Of a DNA stretch of 44,339 nucleotides, positions 17,904 to 21,585 are shown piece by piece; position 1 is the stretch's first letter; every line of letters begins with the position of its first letter. The translations under genes were made by a program, and so were the position numbers. Under the pieces are notes generated by a model. It made no database searches. It saw only the letters and a program-made list of their open reading frames with translations, and was not told where the DNA came from. The stretch comes from a virus. Taxonomy: Duplodnaviria > Heunggongvirae > Uroviricota > Caudoviricetes. The stretch lies in IMG/VR virus record IMGVR_UViG_2923286960_000001. One strand, 5' to 3'.

Positions 17904-21585
<3,682 letters not shown>

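Follow-up and report, generated by a model that had tools for sequence, protein, structure and literature searches.

An extra G in the terminase gene A of a defective lambdoid prophage of the Escherich strain lineage: very probably a true mutation

The window analysed here, which is the whole stretch of 44,339 nucleotides, is a lambdoid prophage located at the argU tRNA-Arg/DLP12 site in the lineage of the Escherich strain (NCTC 86, B-2207). Its gene for the lambda-type terminase large subunit, gene A, begins in one reading frame and ends in another. A sequence-only reading had offered two explanations for this break, either a real slip that inactivates the gene or an error in sequencing the homopolymer. 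Which of the two applies, and whether a full-length terminase might still be made if the slip is real, are the questions raised by this locus. Our results favour a genuine slip, as G6 was found in all five records of the lineage, which belong to two sublineages.

Gene A extends from 17878 to 19804. Its reading follows one frame as far as the run GGGGGG, which lies within cgcgtatggggatggggggccgggtgaggaaag, and the +1 frame from there on (positions 19110-19139 read atggggatggggggccgggtgaggaaagct). The first open reading frame corresponds to the N-terminal part of gpA; it encodes 417 amino acids and has the C-terminal end YEMRVWGWGAG followed by the stop. Past the G run, the +1 frame (PGEESWLIDRQIIMGRHDDEQ..., translated as PGEESWLIDRQ...) runs on to 19804, where the normal gpA stop lies. 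A global alignment with gene A of lambda (J02459, positions 711-2636) showed 26 substitutions and one indel, the extra G in the run, and this G was also the only indel in comparison with five other intact A genes. The frame changes after Gly415, such that Pro416 is replaced by Ala and Gly417 is retained by coincidence, before translation meets a premature TGA two codons past the run. The sequence and the alignment with lambda agree with the earlier description of two frames that switch exactly at the G run by one extra G. The proposal that deletion of a single G gives a continuous gpA frame also proved correct: with one G removed, the gene encodes 641 amino acids, six of which differ from lambda gpA.

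Gene A is 98.7–99.2% identical to the A genes of lambda and many other lambdoid phages. It shares with lambda a DNA identity of 98.7% and the gene order cos, Nu1, A, W, B (portal), with cos located upstream of Nu1. At the matching position, all four related records described below carry Nu1 annotated as a DNA-packaging protein (WP_000453576.1). The gene differs from lambda A in having an extra G after codon 415, a product of 417 amino acids, and the private substitutions R124S (C>A, 18247) and G191D (G>A, 18449), a missense pair in the ATPase domain. Six intact comparators had neither substitution. In a set of 3357 matching E. coli records, the two occurred together only in the four records of the Escherich lineage, and neither occurred alone in the best-ranked of these records.

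In lambda gpA, the N-terminal part is the packaging ATPase and the C-terminal part the nuclease that cleaves cos, with portal binding located at the extreme C-terminus. The frameshift falls within the nuclease domain. The GpA_ATPase domain (PF05876) lies in the first frame, at residues 47–285 (E = 5.4e-50, profile positions 3–237 of 247). The GpA_nuclease domain (PF20454), by contrast, is divided: profile positions 2–100 are encoded in the first frame and 101–286 in the +1 frame, with the break at 100/101, so that it does not stand complete on the same polypeptide as the ATPase. Since the nuclease domain is still encoded but split, gene A is best described as a pseudogene of the gpA family. 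A PDB sequence search with the stranded C-terminal part of gpA found no solved structure.

Table 1. Main features of the terminase region and of two further damaged genes of the prophage (positions refer to the window)
Feature	Position	Strand	Basis
cos cohesive-end sequence GGGCGGCGACCT, intact; substrate of terminase	17169..17180	+	exact match
Nu1 (nohD), terminase small subunit; intact ORF of 181 aa	17358..17903	+	
N-terminal gpA fragment: 415 native residues, then Ala-Gly and TGA; full ATPase domain and first third of nuclease domain	17878..19131	+	
G6 homopolymer with +1 insertion; G5 in all intact relatives	19118..19123	+	
C-terminal part of gpA in the +1 frame, residues 416–641; two thirds of nuclease domain and C-terminal tail	19124..19804	+	
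Premature TGA stop resulting from the frameshift	19129..19131	+	
IS66-family (ISCro1) insertion of 2699 bp in major tail gene V	26205..28903	+	annotation of related records; in silico removal
G7 run with +1 G in tape measure gene H	30669..30675	+	

A query of 251 bp around the G run matched 3325 complete E. coli records, of which only four were identical. These four are the NCTC 86 assemblies LR217818, LT601384 and OZ489144.2, and the genome of B-2207 (CP117959). In each of them a prophage of ~44 kb lies between tRNA-Arg/fimZ and ompT and carries gene names of the DLP12 type assigned by PGAP (intD, essD, rrrD, rzpD, nohD, quuD), and in each of them PGAP annotates the terminase large subunit as a 'frameshifted' pseudogene. 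One copy of the lambda-type A gene was detected per NCTC 86 genome. An exact copy of the whole window was present in none of the four related records, and hence the window constitutes a fifth record.

In a five-way alignment, the window differed from the NCTC 86 assemblies by 9 SNPs, 7 of which were common to B-2207 while 2 were private to the window. The 7 common SNPs place the window and B-2207 together in a second sublineage. The culture-collection descendants of the strain comprise an English/French group (NCTC 86, CIP 61.11) and an American/German group (ATCC 4157, DSM 301), which are ~800–880 SNPs per genome apart (Desroches et al., 2018; PMC5793043). The latter density predicts ~7 SNPs per 44 kb, which matches the 7–9 SNPs that we observed. 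All isolates of the Escherich strain share the deletion L68_A69del in MutL and a frameshift in mutT caused by an extra C in a C tract, and the strain shows raised indel and transition rates with a measured mutator phenotype (Desroches et al., 2018; PMC5793043).

Gene A is one of three damaged morphogenesis genes. The ISCro1 element in gene V contains tnpA, tnpB and a transposase gene, and is flanked by an 8-bp target duplication, CCCTTATG, at 26197-26204 and 28904-28911; its removal in silico restores a V protein of 246 amino acids. Gene H (30417-32979) is one base longer than its closest intact relatives, and its frame ends after 181 amino acids. Of 878 E. coli records that matched, only the four of the Escherich lineage had the +1 G allele of H in exact form. 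The frameshift in A, the private extra G in H and the insertion in V point to early decay of the prophage. It is a defective element that is still nearly full length, with complete head and tail modules. With A, V and H broken, it would be unable to form particles on its own.

Several other observations concern the state of the prophage. Its right end (44100-44339 and flanks; 46157-46437 in related record L005) contains truncated or frameshifted remnants of DinI and tail fibre assembly genes, a further sign of erosion. The cargo genes are intact despite the broken morphogenesis genes: an OmpC-type porin (13248-14330, minus strand) and the serum-resistance lipoprotein iss/bor (16121-16414, minus strand), both placed from the annotation of the related records. 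The tail-fibre gene contains a direct repeat of ~249 bp (40059-40307 and 40248-40496; 83.5% identity, offset 189 bp). At the end of gene G, overlapping the start of the T open reading frame, lies GGGAAAG (29984-29990). This is the conserved −1 programmed frameshift site of lambda G/GT, unlike the slip in A, which is not conserved.

The G6 allele of gene A is rare. A query of 80 bp matched 3307 E. coli records and retrieved the exact G6 only from the four records of the Escherich lineage, apart from the noisy assembly SCU-482; among the other matches listed, nearly all span 79 bases, which corresponds to G5. None of 83 phage genome records carried G6. In IMG/VR, a 30-mer with G6 had no match, while a 29-mer with G5 had at least 120 matches. 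Within the lineage, G6 was present in five of five records. The comparison with other isolates that had been suggested as a check on the sequence-only reading therefore gave a uniform answer, with the same run in the three NCTC 86 assemblies, in B-2207 and in the window. Since G6 is common to both sublineages, it points to a mutation inherited by both. In all probability, judging from the aligned sequences, G6 was passed on vertically and is older than the split between them.

An error of sequencing or assembly, with a true run of five G and an intact gene A, would be a realistic explanation for such a run in general. Long-read assemblies are prone to error at G/C homopolymers, SCU-482 has an identical G6 run amid frameshifts in Nu1, A, W, portal and S49, and the five records of the Escherich lineage differ from each other at three other homopolymers (the T runs at 5941 and 44060, and the poly-G at 16531). 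The latter disagreement also implies that the five records are not copies of one another. Other irregularities occur as well, for instance scattered indels within the IS element in the record of B-2207. Yet, G6 is common to all five records, among them LT601384, a PacBio assembly in which indels were corrected by Pilon with Illumina reads (PMC5382810), and the records span two sublineages set apart by the 7 shared SNPs. Moreover, Nu1, W, B/portal, C/protease, D and E near gene A are all intact in the window, unlike in the noisy assembly. The frameshift pattern of SCU-482 is typical of a long-read assembly that was left uncorrected, and we rejected this assembly as an independent occurrence of G6 because almost every neighbouring gene is frameshifted in it. 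The concern about sequencing error raised by the earlier reading was hence justified as a general caution, and SCU-482 illustrates it, but it does not apply to this prophage, where the run is reproducible and the adjacent genes are intact. We consider an error at this run highly improbable, the residual chance being that of a systematic error common to all platforms, and the change from G5 to G6 is very probably a real +1 insertion in the prophage terminase gene A. If the insertion is real, it might still be circumvented during translation. A +1 shift of the ribosome could bypass the frameshift and provide a useful amount of full-length terminase. The site, UGGGGG-GCC-GGG-UGA-G, resembles that of E. 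coli prfB (RF2), AGGGGG-UAU-CUU-UGA-C, as in both a G-rich Shine-Dalgarno (SD)-like element is separated by a 3-nt spacer from a shift-prone codon, which is followed by an in-frame UGA. The predicted duplex of the 12 upstream nucleotides with the 3' end of 16S rRNA has an energy of −9.3 kcal/mol, compared to −10.6 kcal/mol for prfB. A +1 shift at GGG|U would yield a gpA of 641 amino acids with the single change P416A, whereas the wild-type protein would result if tRNA-Gly slipped by +1 within the run itself (GGG-G). Shifting at prfB is driven by the SD spacing, a P-site tRNA that can pair in the +1 frame and a weak E-site codon; the spacing is strict, the P-site codons span a ~1000-fold range, and the E-site codon is weakly paired (PMC2377451; PMC2790909). 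The site in gene A departs from this arrangement in several respects. Its slip codon is GGG instead of CUU, and re-pairing from GGG to GGU is possible at just two of three positions. Its E-site codon is GCC instead of UAU and thus G:C-rich, while A:U at the second position favours shifting (PMC2377451). The stop codon is followed by G instead of C, and the 3-nt SD spacing exists in one pairing register only, the other being 2 nt.

The distribution of the site also argues against a selected function. A frameshift conserved for its function would be common to relatives, which is not the case for the frameshift in A: the arrangement is not conserved among homologues and occurs only in this lineage, and was therefore made by the mutation and not selected. 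Furthermore, the prophage has two further lethal lesions, so that read-through would be unable to rescue it. It is therefore very unlikely that a useful amount of terminase is still made. A weaker version of the same idea is that the accidental prfB-like cassette supports +1 shifting well above background, with either wild-type gpA or the P416A variant as product, which would make the allele leaky instead of null. Judged from the sequence, this seems unlikely too. If true, this would be a frameshift mutation found in nature that partly suppresses itself. Phase variation, in which the homopolymer would act as a contingency tract that switches terminase on and off, might be considered in a mismatch-repair-deficient host, where reversion from G6 to G5 should be fairly frequent. 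However, six bases are short for a contingency tract. Tract length was the same in five of five records and did not vary within the lineage, whereas the G tract at 16531, which is longer, ranges from G7 to G10. Thousands of relatives have G5, and a plausible benefit of switching is lacking given the other lesions. We regard phase variation of gene A as extremely improbable. Transcriptional slippage was rejected: it is known from runs of ~8–9 A/T, and by comparison a run of six G is short.

The other homopolymers at which the five records disagree deserve mention in their own right. The poly-G tract at 16531-16537, located ~117 nt upstream of the start of iss/bor (minus strand), consisted of G7, G7, G8, G8 and G10 across the five records. 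This tract is either hypervariable in the mismatch-repair-deficient host or affected by the sequencing noise of long homopolymers. LT601384 alone is one T short in each of the T runs at positions 5941 and 44060, which splits ParA and frameshifts a SAM methyltransferase gene. These T losses are likely residual assembly errors or culture-specific changes of the mutator.

Returning to the real +1 insertion in gene A, its origin may be sought in the genetic background of the strain. A loss of mismatch repair is expected to show itself in unrepaired slippage on G runs, and the two +1 G events of this prophage, which are independent of each other and lie in A and H, fit this expectation. We infer that the extra G arose by replication slippage on the G run, left unrepaired in the mutL/mutT-defective lineage. 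The insertion shifts the frame after Gly415 and ends translation two codons further on. The resulting product retains the packaging ATPase domain, and is without two thirds of the cos-cleaving nuclease domain and without the C-terminal tail. Such a protein of 417 amino acids would probably have neither nuclease activity nor the ability to dock to the prohead. This would leave the prophage unable to cut or package its DNA, and its packaging function was presumably lost in this way.

The inactivation is recent, as past the slip the DNA (19124-19804) is a 100% match to A of E. coli AF14, an intact gene, and cos is intact as well. The identity with AF14 indicates a recent event; it does not by itself indicate that gene A is dead. 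To date the slip, we searched for a near-identical prophage outside the Escherich lineage, but the best one was only ~99.1% identical. The slip in A may thus lie on either side of the isolation of the strain in 1885, and the slips in A and H could precede or follow the onset of the mutator state.

Comparison with known systems helps to put the locus into perspective. The prophage resembles DLP12 of K-12 in its site between fimZ/tRNA-Arg and ompT, in its gene names and in being non-functional. It differs from DLP12 in that the copy in the window, with ~44 kb, is less eroded and shows discrete recent lesions instead of large deletions. The slip itself resembles the classical +1 frameshift mutations in G runs, the type suppressed by the sufD tRNA-Gly in Salmonella, in having an extra G in a coding G run. 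Here, however, it is a spontaneous allele of a prophage and not a selected his mutant from the laboratory.

In conclusion, gene A is an ordinary pseudogene in a defective prophage; its frameshift was already annotated in four RefSeq records, and it is nothing new in kind. The comparison of independent assemblies allowed real homopolymer mutations to be told apart from sequencing errors. The correct labels are that of a frameshifted terminase pseudogene for gene A, and that of a defective, rather than an inducible, prophage for the 44-kb element. Although the finding matters little beyond correct annotation, the locus illustrates how a prophage in the mismatch-repair-deficient Escherich strain was disabled by homopolymer slips and an IS insertion.
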